Made by a program: the position numbers and the translations under genes | Source of the DNA: a virus | Lineage: Duplodnaviria; Heunggongvirae; Uroviricota; Caudoviricetes | Virus record (IMG/VR): IMGVR_UViG_2690316285_000013 | Reading direction: 5' to 3' (one strand) | DNA length: 6,310 nucleotides | Notes under the pieces: generated by a model | Database searches by the model: none | What the model was told of the DNA's origin: nothing | What the model saw: only the letters and a program-made list of their open reading frames with translations | Shown here: positions 1-6,310 of the stretch, piece by piece | Numbering within the stretch: position 1 is the stretch's first letter | How the letters are laid out: the number at the start of each line of letters is the position of its first letter

Positions 1-31
1 AAAACACTATCAATAAGTTGGAGTCATTACC
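1..31 (+). mobile_element. IS1 right terminus (last 31 bp including the terminal inverted repeat); the element body lies left of the window
   Basis: Positions 1-31 (AAAACACTATCAATAAGTTGGAGTCATTACC) match the 3' end of IS1 as I recall it. The boundary is ambiguous by 1-2 bp because the flank continues with CC. No transposase ORF is inside the window. Confidence 0.7.
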
Positions 32-131
32 CCAATTTTTTACGTACGTAAACCACTAAATGATATTTGCGAGAATGCTACCGAGTATTGAAAACACCAC
101 TACAAATACATAAGCAAATCCCAACAAATAA

Positions 132-774
132 CCAACAAATAATTTCCAGTGTTATTTTTAGCCGGTTTAAATTGAACCTTCAAATTATAGAGCACTTATA
201 AATAACAGCCGTTAATATAAATTGGCTAATAGATTTATTTTTATTCAGCCAAGAGCCATGAATAGGATTCGATAGAAAAAAGTTCAGATAAAAATAGAGA
301 TCTACTTCACAAATCAAACGAGAAACCAAAACTTACATCTTGAAATAATCACATTGATTAGATGAATATTTATCGCGCAGTGACATCATTTTTTAATAAT
401 AGTTCAAAAAAAGGGCTCACGATGAAAAAATTAACAGTGGCAATTTCTGCTGTAGCTGCATCAGTACTGATGGCGATGTCTGCTCAGGCAGCTGAAATTT
501 ATAATAAAGACAGTAACAAGCTGGATCTGTACGGGAAAGTTAATGCTAAGCACTACTTCTCCTCTAATGATGCAGATGATGGTGATACTACTTATGCCCG
601 TCTTGGCTTCAAAGGTGAAACCCAAATCAACGATCAACTGACTGGTTTCGGTCAGTGGGAATATGAATTCAAAGGCAACCGCGCTGAATCTCAAGGTTCC
701 TCCAAAGATAAAACCCGTCTTGCCTTCGCTGGCCTGAAATTCGGTGACTACGGCTCCATCGATTACGGCCGTAA
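132..774 (+). repeat. Copy A of a 643-bp perfect direct repeat (porin upstream region plus the first 353 nt of the porin CDS)
   Basis: Base-by-base comparison shows 132-774 is identical to 1671-2313 (offset 1539). Copy A ends at the N-run, so its true extent is unknown. Confidence 0.9.
422..774 (+). pseudogene. 5' fragment (118 codons) of the NmpC/OmpD-family porin gene, interrupted by the N-run
   Basis: Same ATG, ribosome-binding site (AAGGG) and signal peptide ([25 protein letters not shown]) as the intact copy at 1961. The reading frame runs into N at 775, and the sequence after the N-run (1140 onward) does not match the porin 3' region. It may be a truncated copy or an assembly artefact. 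Confidence 0.45.
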
Positions 775-1139
775 NNNNNNNNNNNNNNNNNNNNNNNNNN
801 NNNNNNNNNNNNNNNNNNNNNNNNNNNNNNNNNNNNNNNNNNNNNNNNNNNNNNNNNNNNNNNNNNNNNNNNNNNNNNNNNNNNNNNNNNNNNNNNNNNN
901 NNNNNNNNNNNNNNNNNNNNNNNNNNNNNNNNNNNNNNNNNNNNNNNNNNNNNNNNNNNNNNNNNNNNNNNNNNNNNNNNNNNNNNNNNNNNNNNNNNNN
1001 NNNNNNNNNNNNNNNNNNNNNNNNNNNNNNNNNNNNNNNNNNNNNNNNNNNNNNNNNNNNNNNNNNNNNNNNNNNNNNNNNNNNNNNNNNNNNNNNNNNN
1101 NNNNNNNNNNNNNNNNNNNNNNNNNNNNNNNNNNNNNNN
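775..1139. other. Run of 365 undetermined bases (N): an assembly gap or masked sequence
   Basis: Directly visible. ORFs in the track that cross it (X residues) are not interpretable. Confidence 0.95.
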
Positions 1140-1226
1140 CGGATTGTTCAGGCTCCAATAGGTTGAGTATGCCGTATTTATTTTCCAAAATAAAAATCGA
1201 TGCTGTTGCTCCTTCATAAAATACTT

Positions 1227-1669
1227 TTACTCTCTGGACGCTTTTCTTAGCTCTCTTGGTGTTATCTTAAAACGATTATGGAACCTTTCAGTAAAACGAG
1301 AAGGACACTTGTAACCATTTTCCCTGGCAATCTCGCTGATGGGTTTTACTGTCGTTTGTATAGCAGACAACGCATTATTTAACCTCACGTCGTCCAATAT
1401 ACTTTGAAAACTTACTCCCTCGCTTGCCAGACGGCGATGCAATGTGGAAACAGAAATGTAGAGATATCTCGCTACCTTGTTTGCTGTCCATTTTGTTCCA
1501 GGTTCGGATAGCATTAGGTTATAACAACGACTTATTAATGATTGTTTACTATCTGATAAAAGTAAACAATTAACATGATGTGCTCCTAATGAAAGTAGAA
1601 CGCCCATTGCTAAGTGTTCCTGAATTTGCGTTGAGAAGCCTCGGGAAATAGATGTTTTTAGTTGCTCCC
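1227..1669 (-). pseudogene. 3' fragment of an AraC/XylS-family transcriptional regulator gene (C-terminal helix-turn-helix domain); the 5' part is missing at the junction at 1670
   Basis: The minus-strand translation (...[83 protein letters not shown]...) has the typical two-HTH AraC C-terminal signature. The frame stays open upstream of the listed Met all the way to the N at 1670 (…[23 protein letters not shown]…), so the gene is truncated by the junction and has no real start. It may be a ybcM-like prophage regulator, but I cannot confirm identity from memory. Confidence 0.6.
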
Positions 1670-1670
1670 N

Positions 1671-2313
1671 CCAACAAATAATTTCCAGTGTTATTTTTAG
1701 CCGGTTTAAATTGAACCTTCAAATTATAGAGCACTTATAAATAACAGCCGTTAATATAAATTGGCTAATAGATTTATTTTTATTCAGCCAAGAGCCATGA
1801 ATAGGATTCGATAGAAAAAAGTTCAGATAAAAATAGAGATCTACTTCACAAATCAAACGAGAAACCAAAACTTACATCTTGAAATAATCACATTGATTAG
1901 ATGAATATTTATCGCGCAGTGACATCATTTTTTAATAATAGTTCAAAAAAAGGGCTCACGATGAAAAAATTAACAGTGGCAATTTCTGCTGTAGCTGCAT
2001 CAGTACTGATGGCGATGTCTGCTCAGGCAGCTGAAATTTATAATAAAGACAGTAACAAGCTGGATCTGTACGGGAAAGTTAATGCTAAGCACTACTTCTC
2101 CTCTAATGATGCAGATGATGGTGATACTACTTATGCCCGTCTTGGCTTCAAAGGTGAAACCCAAATCAACGATCAACTGACTGGTTTCGGTCAGTGGGAA
2201 TATGAATTCAAAGGCAACCGCGCTGAATCTCAAGGTTCCTCCAAAGATAAAACCCGTCTTGCCTTCGCTGGCCTGAAATTCGGTGACTACGGCTCCATCG
2301 ATTACGGCCGTAA
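1671..2313 (+). repeat. Copy B of the 643-bp perfect direct repeat (part of the intact porin locus)
   Basis: Identical to 132-774. It is preceded by a single N at 1670. Confidence 0.9.
1879..1908 (+). promoter_or_regulatory. Candidate sigma70 promoter for the porin gene (TTGAAA -35-like hexamer, AT-rich -10 region about 18 bp downstream)
   Basis: TTGAAA at 1879-1884 and GAATAT/AATATT near 1903-1909, about 50 nt upstream of the ATG at 1961. The -10 match is weak and the call is by eye only. The same motif sits in copy A at 340-370. Confidence 0.2.
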
Positions 2314-3043
2314 CTACGGTGTAGCATACGACATCGGTGCGTGGACTGACGTCCTGCCAGAATTCGGTGGTGACACTTGGACTCAAACAGATGTGTTCAT
2401 GACTGGTCGCACCACTGGTGTTGCAACTTATCGTAACAACGACTTCTTTGGTCTGGTTGATGGTCTGAACTTTGCTGCTCAGTATCAGGGTAAAAATGAC
2501 CGCACTGACGTAACTGAAGCTAATGGTGATGGTTTCGGTTTCTCCACTACTTATGAGTATGAAGGATTCGGTGTAGGTGCAACCTATGCTAAATCTGACC
2601 GCACTAATAATCAGGTTATCTACGGTAACAACAGCCTGAATGCATCTGGTCAAAATGCTGAAGTATGGGCAGCTGGTCTGAAATATGATGCGAACAACAT
2701 CTATCTGGCTACCACCTATTCTGAAACCCAGAACATGACTGTTTTTGGTAATAACCATATTGCCAACAAAGCACAAAACTTCGAAGTAGTTGCACAATAT
2801 CAGTTCGACTTCGGTCTGCGTCCGTCCGTTGCTTACCTGCAATCTAAAGGAAAAGACTTGGGTGCGTGGGGTGATCAGGACCTGGTTGAATATATTGATG
2901 TAGGTGCAACCTATTACTTCAACAAAAATATGTCCACTTTTGTTGATTACAAAATCAACCTGATTGATAAGAGCGATTTCACGAAAGCATCTGGCGTTGC
3001 TACCGATGATATCGTTGCTGTAGGTATGGTTTACCAGTTCTAA
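1961..3043 (+). CDS. nmpC: Outer-membrane general porin of the OmpC/OmpF superfamily, closest to the prophage-borne NmpC/OmpD/Lc group (360 aa precursor)
   Basis: ATG at 1961 with AAGGG 8 nt upstream. The N-terminus is a classic signal peptide ending AQA/AE, followed by the porin hallmark [17 protein letters not shown] and PEFGG and a C-terminal VYQF beta-barrel signal. It lies next to lambdoid Q, as nmpC does in DLP12. The ORF-track start at 1901 (MNIYRAV...) is an upstream in-frame extension without a ribosome-binding site and is rejected. The gene symbol is less certain than the family. Confidence 0.85.
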
Positions 3044-3067
3044 TTTGATTACTAAAAGATATGTTGC

Positions 3068-3114
3068 GGGAGGCTTTGCCTCCCCAATATATAAGTGGCT
3101 CCCTCAAGCCACTT
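3068..3114 (+). terminator. Two adjacent stem-loops downstream of the porin gene (GGGAGGC-TTT-GCCTCCC at 3068-3084; AAGTGGCT-CCCTCA-AGCCACTT at 3093-3114)
   Basis: Perfect 7-bp and 8-bp inverted repeats seen directly. Neither is followed by a clean T-run, so terminator function is uncertain. They could also be a Q-utilisation or other regulatory element for minus-strand transcription. Confidence 0.3.
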
Positions 3115-3180
3115 CCTTTAGGAGCACAACCTTGCTTCTAACTATATAAACCTTCTGTTATATATTACCCTTTATTTTTG

Positions 3181-3214
3181 GGGGCGTTGCAACGCCCCAT
3201 TTTTAATAATTTTT
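3181..3214 (+). terminator. Rho-independent terminator (GC-rich palindrome GGGGCGTTGCAACGCCCC followed by ATTTTTAATAATTTTT)
   Basis: GC-rich hairpin followed by a T-rich tract on the plus strand, between the convergent porin (stop 3043) and Q (stop 3232). The T-run favours plus-strand termination of the porin transcript. Confidence 0.5.
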
Positions 3215-3231
3215 AGTAAACAATTGGCATA

Positions 3232-3615
3232 TTAATTAGAGTTATTAACAACGATATCCATCTCTAACCGGATATCTAATGCCATTAACATCCCTTCAAT
3301 TATGCCCTCAGCCTTCTGTAACCTTTTCCCGATATAACCATCAGAGCAGCAATGCTTACCTGCCAGTGACATGAATGTCATACCGACTACATAATAATCT
3401 ACTAATAAATCGTGCAAATCGCTGTTGTTCTTTTTCAGACGGGCCATGCACCCGCAAATAATCATCGCGTCATCGTCACAACATTGCGGGCGAGATTTTA
3501 CTTTTGAAGTAATTAATCCCTTAAAACCGGCGGCAATGGACGACCAGGTCACATCTTCATGATTATTAGCCGCCCACGCTCCCCAACGCTCAAGAACCAT
3601 CTGAATATCACGCAT
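3232..3615 (-). CDS. quuD: Lambdoid late-gene antiterminator Q (127 aa)
   Basis: The translation ([31 protein letters not shown]...[18 protein letters not shown]...) matches the DLP12/phage-82-type Q family as I recall it. ATG at 3615 with GGAG 8 nt upstream. The ORF-track start at 3630 uses TTG with no ribosome-binding site and is rejected. Confidence 0.8.
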
Positions 3616-3700
3616 CAACTTACTCCACAAAAATCAGACCAGAACGCCAATTACAAGCAAAAATCAACAAAACAGTATTAGTTGATTGTTATCTCTGACT

Positions 3701-3841
3701 TCATACTCCTGCTCCTGTCAGGGTTTTGGCGTAATTCTTCAGTATTCGGTAATCGGTCAAAACAGAACCGGGGAAACGATATAAGCGCAGATGCCCCCAG
3801 CGGTGGCGAAGAAGTTCTGCCATATAAAACTCAAACATCAT
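3701..3841 (-). CDS. ylcG: Small 46-aa protein, YlcG-like, translationally coupled to rusA (ATGA overlap)
   Basis: Minus-strand [49 protein letters not shown], which I translated by hand. Its start ATG (3841-3839) overlaps the rusA stop (3840-3838). The size and position between rusA and Q match ylcG of DLP12, but identity is not verified. It is not in the supplied ORF track. Confidence 0.4.
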
Positions 3842-4200
3842 TCATTCCCCATTTCGGTGATGGTCAGTTCCAGCCTCCCACCTTTGGTAACAGGCATCTT
3901 CACAACGCGGTAATCAACGACCTGAGCATCATCCAGCCAGAAACCTGCTTTGGTGAGTGCGTCAAAAGCGGCTTTTTGCAGATTATCCAGGTCACGGCGA
4001 CGGCGATCCGGCATGTGGCACTCAATACGGATTTTCACTGGCATAGCCAGGCCGATATCCAGCATTGCGTTTTTAATGATTCGGGTGACGTTATCGCGGT
4101 ATGCCTGCCCTTCTGCGCTGATGTGTGTGCGCCCGCGATTATGGCGGTAATAGCGGTTATTGCTCGGAGGCCAGGGTAATGTGATGCTGTAGGTATTCAC
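3838..4200 (-). CDS. rusA: RusA Holliday-junction resolvase (120 aa)
   Basis: [23 protein letters not shown]... and the acidic catalytic region [18 protein letters not shown]...WLDDAQV match RusA. The start codon is GTG at 4200-4198, overlapping the ybcO stop. Confidence 0.85.
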
Positions 4201-4487
4201 GCCTTAATAACCCCCTCTTTCAGCCAGATAACCTGCGTTCTCGCCATACCTTCCAGCGCGCATTCTTTTGCATACTCAGCATCGACAAAATATGTGCGGC
4301 GGTCGATTTCGTCGTGACAGGCAGAACATGCAATGGTGGCAATCAGGTCTGGCGGTTTGATACCGGTACCGCACAATCCAGCCAGCCGGATATGTGCCAG
4401 TACTGACGTTTCAGGATTGCCATTACATACGCCAGGGATTCTTACCTGGCATTCCCGACCACGCGCTGCTTTTCTCAAATCAGCCAT
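4197..4487 (-). CDS. ybcO: YbcO-like Cys-rich protein (DUF1364; putative prophage nuclease), 96 aa
   Basis: ATG at 4487 preceded by AGGAGG (plus-strand TCCTCC at 4491-4496). The protein [23 protein letters not shown]...CSACHDEID is Cys-rich. The ORF-track start at 4526 is a 13-codon upstream extension and is rejected. The start overlaps the ninE stop by 8 nt. Confidence 0.7.
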
Positions 4488-4650
4488 GATTCCTCCTTGC
4501 TGCCAGTCGCAACCATTTTTTATCAACCAGGCTAGCGGTATATCCGAGCAGTGTTGGTATTTCGGATGGCTTCAGCTCAGGCTTACGCTTACGACGATTT
4601 GATACTCTGTAGATGTGCCCGTTCATGACACGAATAAGCGGTGTAGCCAT
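4480..4650 (-). CDS. ninE: NinE-like small protein (56 aa)
   Basis: Hand-translated minus-strand [59 protein letters not shown]. Its ATG (4650-4648) overlaps the ninB stop (TAATG), and its position between ninB and ybcO matches lambdoid nin regions. It is not in the supplied ORF track. Confidence 0.6.
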   Translation of the reverse strand: MATPLIRVMNGHIYRVSNRRKRKPELKPSEIPTLLGYTASLVDKKWLRLAARRNHG

Positions 4651-5105
4651 TACGCCTCCTGCTTATCGCGCAGCTGCTGGTATTCACAGCTCTGCGGAAT
4701 TGTCAGGTGGCAGCCGATATTCATCGCCCAGGCTTCGACTTTGCACAGGAAGATGTACATCTCGCCGGTTTCCAGCTCTGACGTATGGCGGAGGGATTGG
4801 ACGGTGGTGACCTCGCCGGACACGACATCTACACGGTCTTTGCTTTCGTAGCCGAGATAGGTGTGCTTCATCGCGTCTTTGACCCACTCAGGCGTAGCGA
4901 AGGTCTTGCCGCGGGCGATGAGATATTCGCTGATCTCCGTGTACCACATGTGGCTGAGCGCGTTCTGCGACAGGCTGCGCTTCTCGCGCCACGGCTTAAC
5001 CTGCAGGCGTAAGCATTGCCCGGCATCCAGCAATGGCTGAATCTGCTGGCCGATGGCCGCGAAGTTACCGCGATGGAGTTTGATGCCGTCTACTGGCAGA
5101 GTCAT
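4650..5105 (-). CDS. ninB: NinB/Orf-family recombination mediator (151 aa; YbcN-like)
   Basis: ATG at 5105 with GGGAGG upstream. Length and motifs (RSLSQNALSHMWYTEISEYL) are consistent with the lambda NinB family. It is the first long gene of the minus-strand operon. Confidence 0.8.
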   Translation of the reverse strand: MTLPVDGIKLHRGNFAAIGQQIQPLLDAGQCLRLQVKPWREKRSLSQNALSHMWYTEISEYLIARGKTFATPEWVKDAMKHTYLGYESKDRVDVVSGEVTTVQSLRHTSELETGEMYIFLCKVEAWAMNIGCHLTIPQSCEYQQLRDKQEA

Positions 5106-5197
5106 ACGGCCTCCCTAACGGAAACCGCAGAATGCAGAAAATCGCAGGTGCATTTCTGCATCTGTGACAAGGTGATGAGTTCAGATTGTGGTCGCAT
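5102..5197 (-). CDS. Small 31-aa ORF, translationally coupled to ninB (ATGA overlap); possibly ylcH-like
   Basis: Hand-translated MRPQSELITLSQMQKCTCDFLHSAVSVREAV. It has an AAGGGGA ribosome-binding site 6 nt upstream, and its stop overlaps the ninB ATG. It is very short, so this is a low-confidence call. Confidence 0.3.
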   Translation of the reverse strand: MRPQSELITLSQMQKCTCDFLHSAVSVREAV

Positions 5198-5216
5198 TTA
5201 AGTCCCCTTAAATGCG
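5132..5216. promoter_or_regulatory. Two inverted repeats upstream of ninB (ATGCAGAAA-12 bp-TTTCTGCAT at 5132-5161; CGCATTTAA-GTCCCC-TTAAATGCG at 5193-5216)
   Basis: Perfect 9-bp arms seen directly. The second repeat encloses the ribosome-binding site of the small ORF. Candidate roles are operator, RNA structure or an early-operon terminator of the tR2 type, with no clean U-tract. Confidence 0.3.
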
Positions 5217-5369
5217 CAGAAGTCACCGGAGTTGTTCAGGCTCCGATGAGAGGATTATGGCGGATTGATTACGATAAATCAAAACTATCTTGAAGCCAAA
5301 ACAGTGATCTTCGCTTTAAAAACCTTGTATACTTTCACCTAATCACAGCCAGAACTATGGATCTAACCA

Positions 5370-5747
5370 ATGACCAACAAAGAAAACAAAGATAAATATA
5401 TTAACAAGTTCAAGAAAGAGCTTTCAAAATATATACAACCAACTGCTGGAGTGGACATTCAATTATTTAACTCTAAGGATGGTGGTGGTGTAATTAAAGC
5501 CACTTTGAATAGAAGTGGAAAAAGAAAATCATCTATTGCTGGTAATTTTACTAAATTAGGTGAGGCAATTACCTCGAGTGGGCAGAGGGTTTTTGGTGGT
5601 GATCTATCAAATGTGAATTTTTACGGAACAAATACGATTTTTGATGGAGATACAATATTTTTAATTAAATCACCTGATTCAGAGGAGTGGTCATCACAAA
5701 AAGCTTCCAAAGACGTAGAGGGCATCGTATTTGGAGGGAAAAAATGA
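5370..5747 (+). CDS. Hypothetical hydrophilic protein, 125 aa, Lys- and Gly-rich, no signal peptide or transmembrane segment; first gene of an AT-rich two-gene cassette
   Basis: ORF from ATG 5370 to TGA 5745-5747, with an in-frame stop 2 codons upstream, so it is not a fragment of a longer frame. The ribosome-binding site is weak (GGA about 9 nt upstream). Base composition is much more AT-rich than the adjacent nin genes. I recognise no family. Confidence 0.55.
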   Translation: MTNKENKDKYINKFKKELSKYIQPTAGVDIQLFNSKDGGGVIKATLNRSGKRKSSIAGNFTKLGEAITSSGQRVFGGDLSNVNFYGTNTIFDGDTIFLIKSPDSEEWSSQKASKDVEGIVFGGKK

Positions 5748-6172
5748 TTAACATTACTACTAAGGATGGCACTCAAGTCAGTGGTGAAGTAAGAGATCTA
5801 GTAATTCTTCTTGAAACTGATGGAAAAACGGTGTCTGATTATTTGCAGCCAATCCCTCCCAAAAAAGATACACACTGGAGCATGATTTTCATTCCGGTAG
5901 CAATTTATATACTACTTAATCTTGTATACATTATTGCTCACCCATTATTTCCTGAAAAATATCTAAAAACATCAACATCTATATTTCTATTCATTTCCTT
6001 CATATTAAGTGCAATAGTAGCATATTTTGTTTTCCATAAGCATAAATCTGCCACTCTATCCATATGCAGCTTAGTGTTCTTAGTGTTAATTGTAGGTGCT
6101 AACGTAGGGTTTATCAGTTACAGCGACCTAACACAAAAAGCGACGCAAAAATTAGATAGTTTGTCTAAATAA
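5744..6172 (+). CDS. Hypothetical small integral membrane protein, 142 aa: about 45-aa hydrophilic N-terminal domain followed by three predicted transmembrane helices and a charged C-terminal tail
   Basis: ATG at 5744 overlaps the upstream stop (ATGA), with a strong GGAGGG ribosome-binding site 5 nt upstream. Hydrophobic stretches: WSMIFIPVAIYILLNLVYIIAHPLF, TSIFLFISFILSAIVAYFVF, LSICSLVFLVLIVGANVGFISY. The ORF-track start at 5687 is a non-ATG extension inside the upstream gene and is rejected. Confidence 0.6.
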   Translation: MINITTKDGTQVSGEVRDLVILLETDGKTVSDYLQPIPPKKDTHWSMIFIPVAIYILLNLVYIIAHPLFPEKYLKTSTSIFLFISFILSAIVAYFVFHKHKSATLSICSLVFLVLIVGANVGFISYSDLTQKATQKLDSLSK

Positions 6173-6279
6173 TTATGTTGCCATGCGAAGTATGCATGGC
6201 TGCATGTCTGCCTTCCATTTAAAATGGGCTAAGACCTATAACCCTAAATATTATTCTTTATTATCTTCTTTACCACTTC

Positions 6280-6310
6280 GGTGATGCTGCCAACTTACTG
6301 ATTTAGTGTA
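6280..6310 (+). mobile_element. IS1 left terminus (first 31 bp including the terminal inverted repeat); the element continues right of the window
   Basis: GGTGATGCTGCCAACTTACTGATTTAGTGTA matches the IS1 left end as I recall it. It is in the same orientation as the IS1 end at 1-31. Confidence 0.7.

Follow-up and report, generated by a model that had tools for sequence, protein, structure and literature searches.

In Escherichia coli, the nmpC/Lc locus of DLP12-type prophages consists of a leftward essD, a rightward porin gene, and a leftward series comprising quuD, ylcG, rusA, ybcO, ninE, and ybcN; in intact prophages of this type, ybcM follows ybcN-ylcH and lies ~2.3 kb further right than the porin. 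In strain K-12, nmpC is presumably disrupted by IS5. The window analysed here, a 6,310-nt stretch of DNA from a Caudoviricetes record (IMG/VR record IMGVR_UViG_2690316285_000013), follows the same gene order, and its porin upstream region is 99% identical to that found in K-12 strains at ~576 kb, the position of DLP12. It differs from the DLP12 type in that the porin gene is intact, in that an IS1 lies 390 nt upstream of the porin ATG, and in that two AT-rich open reading frames (ORFs) stand past ybcN instead of ybcM/ybcL.

The window further differs in carrying the porin upstream region and the start of the porin gene twice, around a fragment of ybcM. Comparable duplications have been described as assembly errors. 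The false duplications catalogued by Ko et al. (2022 Genome Biol 23:205; PMC9516828) resemble the window in that identical copies occur on one scaffold with gaps between them, such gaps between duplicated pairs being a hallmark of false duplications that arise through gap filling or assembly errors, and in that the outcome is a false partial gene gain, which in the window would be a 5' porin fragment. They concern diploid vertebrate assemblies in which heterozygosity is the main cause, whereas the window derives from a haploid bacterial genome rich in IS elements and prophages, in which the misplacement of a 530-nt contig is apparently the trigger. Campbell-type integration and microhomology-mediated tandem duplication also resemble the window, in that they produce a direct repeat around an insert, perfect identity of the copies, and short homologies at the ends. 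Unlike the products of these processes, the window gives way to N at either inner edge of the repeat, its insert would comprise only ~0.9 kb of chromosomal ybcM, and the arrangement occurs in no other genome searched.

Here we show that the underlying locus is an ordinary, known one, namely an NmpC/Lc-type porin gene within a lambdoid prophage remnant that IS1 bounds on both sides, and we argue that the 643-nt repeat is very probably a false duplication from the scaffolding or gap filling of a short-read draft, not a product of biology. If annotated as it stands, the scaffold would yield a truncated porin gene, a duplicate porin upstream region, and an adjacency of AraC and porin genes, all of them spurious; the last might be misread by an annotator as a regulator-target pair. 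The value of the case lies mainly in this caution for annotation.

Organization of the window

Positions 132-774 (copy A) and 1671-2313 (copy B), both on the plus strand, are identical base for base, as a first-pass annotation of the window had stated. Direct comparison within the window gave 643 matches in 643 nt, and a repeat finder returned the same pair (132-774 and 1671-2313) with a spacing of 1539 nt; a perfect match of this length excludes a chance origin. Copy A comprises 290 nt of porin upstream sequence followed by the porin ATG at 422, codons 1-117, and 2 further nt, so that it stops inside codon 118 at a run of N, again in agreement with the first-pass annotation. Copy B comprises the same 643 nt, with its ATG at 1961, and runs on into a complete porin gene. 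Positions 32-131 flank copy A only and belong to the intergenic region between essD and the porin gene; this stretch is what naturally adjoins the repeated segment on its left.

The only non-ACGT characters in the window are a run of 365 N (775-1139), which represents a scaffold gap of probably estimated size, and a single N at position 1670, which marks a contig join across which no sequence was read. A lone N may be the way in which certain scaffolders denote a negative gap that they could not resolve. The window is composed, in other words, of three sequence blocks parted by an estimated-size gap and a 1-N join, and the edges of the duplicates coincide with these gap characters on one and the same scaffold: the inner edge of copy A is the exact start of the 365-N run, and the inner edge of copy B lies directly 3' of the single N. 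The repeat can be extended in neither direction, given that the A at position 131 faces the N at 1670 on the left and that copy A meets the N run on the right.

The 11-mer CCAACAAATAA occurs twice in tandem at 121-142, just upstream of the porin regulatory region. Its second unit constitutes the first 11 nt of the repeat, and the left edge of the repeat falls exactly between the two CCAACAAATAA units. The tandem is kept in 19 of 19 IMG/VR copies.

Both ends of the window lie within IS1. Positions 1-31 (plus strand) are the last 31 nt of IS1 (right terminus) and match the end of the annotated IS1A in L002 at 100%, while positions 6280-6310 (plus strand) are the first 31 nt (left terminus); each is a probable scaffold end. 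The element was recognized as IS1 by the identity of the termini to annotated IS1, of which the window holds 31 nt on each side, and by the closed chromosome CP049179.1 (L036), in which a complete IS1 occupies the left site as a simple insertion with an 8-nt target duplication, CCAATTTT. Because the window breaks off 31 nt inside IS1 at either end, it looks like a whole short-read scaffold, its ends resembling the contig ends of a k-mer assembler. In L036, IS1 copies of like orientation stand at either end of the prophage fragment (5840-6610 and 11319 onward); the left one is inserted in the essD-porin intergenic region, and the right one truncates the gene for replication protein P at its 3' end.

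Comparison with gap-free relatives

Neither IS1 insertion junction of the window was detected in any of 5,426 complete E. coli genomes; the closed chromosome CP049179.1 and one IMG/VR contig (L016) have both. Given the absence of these junctions from the 5,426 genomes, L036 and L016 can be regarded as true lineage relatives of the window, and the IS1 sites suggest an IS1-rich, possibly Shigella-like lineage. With 3 substitutions separating each of them from the window, the relatives do not represent the same isolate.

When positions 132-1670 are removed, the remaining 4,771 nt are collinear with both CP049179.1 and L016, with 3 substitutions and one 1-nt indel relative to each of these independent, gap-free assemblies. 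The loci of both relatives contain 0 N, and the repeated segment is single-copy in each, as judged by 40-mers taken from its start, middle, and end. Copies A and B fall on one single place in L016 and L036, and window positions 1-774 and 1671-6310 map to one overlapping stretch in both. No ybcM was present in either relative within the sequence retrieved around the locus.

Boundaries of the repeated segment

Neither edge of the repeat is a natural homology boundary. About 2,450 complete E. coli genomes contain 32-774 as an unbroken stretch. A segment spanning 32-331 runs through the 131/132 edge in 2,397 of the 2,399 complete-genome records in which it was found, with a median of 1 and a maximum of 2 copies per complete genome, and a 200-nt probe placed across 2313/2314 is likewise uninterrupted in 2,511 of the 2,513 complete-genome records that it matched; the porin-bearing region as such occurs at a median of 1 and at up to 3 places per complete genome. 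The left flank of copy A is present in all IMG/VR contigs that bear the start of the segment (19/19), and a different base at position 131 was seen in none of the IMG/VR copies. Variants at the 19 IMG/VR loci first diverge at repeat coordinates 63-719, and never at 644.

Natural origins considered for the two edges did not hold. Copy-number variation of the 11-mer was rejected as the source of the 131/132 edge because the one-unit allele is absent from IMG/VR, and a paralogue with another left flank was rejected because none exists in IMG/VR or among the complete genomes. The onset of allelic divergence among porins was likewise rejected as the source of the 774/775 edge, the variants diverging elsewhere.

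Two IMG/VR contigs from different lineages (L017 and L033) end at window-equivalent 194/195, i.e. 63-64 nt into the repeated segment. These ends were considered as a sign of a graph branch at 132, which was rejected because L017 spans whole IS copies; they probably reflect a provirus-boundary call, not a contig break.

Origin of the ybcM fragment and its junction

The 530-nt block between the two gaps (1140-1669, minus strand) comprises 87 nt of 3' flank and the C-terminal 443 nt of the 798-nt ybcM gene, which amounts to the C-terminal ~147 of 265 codons. That this sequence is unrelated to porin and represents an AraC-family fragment had been proposed in the first-pass annotation, and the proposal holds: the piece gave Pfam HTH_18 and HTH_AraC matches, consistent with YbcM of the AraC family, and matches the ybcM of numerous complete genomes at 100% identity. 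The DLP12-type ybcM is only 89% identical to the window piece. The allele with 100% identity sits in the islet between yedK and fliE, in the order yedK - IS200/IS605 remnant - ... - ybcM - ybcL - emrE - fliE (L005).

The yedK-fliE islet (L005 6368-7885; likewise L002, L006, L008, L009, and L013) is itself a decayed DLP12-like prophage remnant. The blocks directly before ybcM include a porin-upstream-like block 82% identical to window 85-462, together with a quuD 3' remnant (corresponding to ~window 3234-3330) and a ybcN-upstream remnant (~window 5123-5270). Copy A, the gap, and ybcM were considered as a version of this islet, which was rejected on the grounds that the islet block stops at window-equivalent 462, that copy A reaches 774 as true porin coding sequence, and that the spacing does not fit.

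At the join, true ybcM reads ...GCTCCC-AACAATAT and the window reads ...GCTCCC-N-CCAACAAATAA; the ybcM side ends in ...GTTGCTCCC, and the far side of the N starts with CCAACAAATAA. The bases at the join (CCC-N-CC) are a clean fit to neither parent sequence and do not form a clean microhomology product. The junction of ybcM with the porin upstream region was found in 0 of 5,426 complete E. coli genomes, and was likewise absent from GTDB species representatives, IMG/VR, and JGI metagenomes. An apparent match in KMi029 was rejected, as it consists of two non-collinear pieces of the yedK-fliE islet.

Each end of the ybcM piece lies 4 nt inside a short exact match to the prophage part of the window (1140-1143 on the left, 1666-1669 on the right). 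The left match extends over 17 nt and equals window 5215-5231; the right match is the 9-nt TCCCAACAA, equal to window 119-127, and CCAACAA recurs at 132-138. It is unlikely that short matches at both ends arose by pure chance. They suggest a recruitment of the ybcM piece driven by similarity, either computationally or, less likely, through a real template switch.

The ybcM gene is a recurrent site of contig breaks in draft assemblies. Several NCBI draft contigs (L006, L009-L013, and L015) stop at one base in ybcM, window-equivalent 1608, and in L006 a run of N begins at this position. Assembly breaks in ybcM could be caused by paralogous ybcM or by an IS insertion.

A genuine adjacency of an AraC-family fragment and a porin, unrelated to the junction in the window, exists in Logan contig L014 (SRR933397_270). 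At 7361-9867 of this contig, a 5'-truncated ybcM is fused to sequence upstream of a porin of the yedS type, with hchA-hprSR-hiuH-msrPQ alongside, an arrangement which implies that the region from ybcL through the fli region has been deleted. L014 was rejected as a natural counterpart of the AraC-porin adjacency in the window because its porin is of the yedS type (68-80% identical) and because its ybcM break lies 57 nt further on than that of the window, which makes it a different junction.

Origin of the duplication

The first-pass annotation had offered either a real, recent duplication or a mis-assembly or scaffolding join. The second of these is favoured; gap-free relatives that share the same IS1 sites and are single-copy speak against the first. 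A false duplication is indicated by several findings taken together: gap-free genomes of the same lineage have one porin start and no AraC-type fragment beside it, gap characters stand at both inner edges, the ybcM piece is foreign and comes from another islet, the junction of ybcM with the repeat is absent from all collections searched, and the repeat edges are not natural boundaries. The true locus would be single-copy, with the order IS1, 100 nt, porin upstream region, porin, quuD to ybcN, two small ORFs, and IS1. A stray 530-nt ybcM contig from the yedK-fliE islet would have been set between two pieces of this locus, and the same reads or the same contig would then have been used on either side of ybcM, such that 643 nt were written twice. 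Copy A would thereby lengthen the left piece into the residual 365-N gap, and copy B would lengthen the right piece up to the 1-N join. The software step responsible could be gap filling from both sides, or the use of one contig twice.

It had also been proposed that a second active porin promoter would drive transcription into the gap region. This is not supported, given that the relatives are single-copy and that the junction of ybcM with the porin upstream region occurs in no other sequence searched. The promoter of copy A is likewise at most putatively intact; a consensus scan of the 290 nt upstream of the porin (1671-1960 in copy B) returned no sigma-70-like promoter. This upstream region has a GC content of 29% and is complete relative to that of the relatives.

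Other explanations were weighed against a scaffolding error. Two real loci, e.g. in two lambdoid prophages, might share the 643 nt, with a single contig used twice and mis-linked to ybcM. Such a collapse of a true repeat, which agrees with the wording 'collapsed repeat' in the first-pass annotation and with the recurrence of porin-bearing lambdoid prophages at up to 3 places per genome, is improbable, in that most complete genomes carry the upstream region only once, the lineage relatives are single-copy in the sequence retrieved around the locus, and no natural variant becomes identical at 132 or ceases to be so at 775, so that the repeat edges do not lie at identity boundaries between paralogues. 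Under this reading, the copy number would be real and only the displayed arrangement false. Nor do we find it at all likely that the N runs mask real sequence into which copy A continues: masked stretches are mentioned for one sequence collection, but scaffolders typically produce features such as a one-base N exactly at a repeat edge and an odd-length run of 365 N, the window is collinear with a closed genome once collapsed, and 365 nt are too short either for the rest of the porin or for the 4.4 kb that separate codon 118 from the usual ybcM-type sequence. This last explanation is barely credible.

The perfect identity of the copies would also fit a real local rearrangement, in which a microhomology-mediated event, a template switch, or a single crossover with a small circle put a ybcM segment upstream of the porin. 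The pattern at the ends of the piece would suit a microhomology-mediated event, with ybcM ...GCTCCCAACAA facing TCCCAACAA at window 119-127 and CCAACAA at 132-138 on one side and the 17-nt match on the other. A true junction, however, gives rise to unique k-mers through which short reads assemble; here an N stands in its place with no clean microhomology join, the other side is an open 365-N gap, and neither novel junction is read through by continuous sequence. The junction, moreover, occurs in no collection searched, and neither it nor the duplication is found in related genomes, those with the same IS1 sites included. We therefore consider a real rearrangement very improbable, and the same holds for its consequence, a duplicated porin promoter and 5' end that leaves a truncated porin with its own upstream region. 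Its most specific form, a private and very recent template switch that joined 530 or more nt from the ybcM islet to the porin upstream region at TCCCAACAA/CCAACAA and was half-resolved by a short-read assembler, is no less improbable. Were the duplication real after all, it would offer a modest case of rearrangement through microhomology in a genome that is IS-rich and Escherichia/Shigella-like.

Porin locus and prophage context

With the duplication regarded as an error of scaffolding, the locus itself conforms to known prophages. The complete gene at 1961-3043 (plus strand) encodes an intact NmpC/Lc-type prophage porin of 360 aa with a full-length Porin_1 domain (PF00267; E = 3e-153, 510 bits; PHROG 410) and is encoded, as in lambdoid prophages, between Q and the lysis cassette. 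Many prophages encode an identical protein at a site bounded by the holin and Q antiterminator genes. The genes quuD, ylcG, rusA, ybcO, ninE, and ybcN (3232-5105, minus strand), assigned by Pfam and the RefSeq annotation of L003, constitute the Q and nin region of a DLP12-like lambdoid prophage; quuD matches Phage_antitermQ, and the ybcN gene is ybcN/NinB-like. In complete genomes, the block reads essD (leftward), porin (rightward), quuD to ybcN (leftward), two ORFs (rightward), and replication protein P (leftward), and the sequence 1671-6310 is contiguous there at 99.5-99.9%.

At 3181-3198 (plus strand), ~140 nt downstream of the porin stop codon, a GC-rich hairpin precedes a stretch of T (GGGGCGTTGCAACGCCCC ATTTTT). 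From its sequence, this element is likely to be an intrinsic terminator that separates the porin gene from the convergent quuD.

The two overlapping ORFs (5370-5747 and 5744-6172, plus strand; 125 and 142 aa; 34% GC) run against the nin genes, in place of the DLP12-type ylcH-ybcM-ybcL, and belong to PHROG 18061 and 16940, both of unknown function. Neither gave a significant Pfam domain or a PADLOC match, and the 142-aa ORF gave only a sub-threshold match to 7TMR-DISM_7TM. Judged by its sequence features, the two-ORF cassette at 5370-6172 appears moron-like. In both L016 and L036, the second ORF (5744-6172) is apparently frameshifted by a 1-nt indel.
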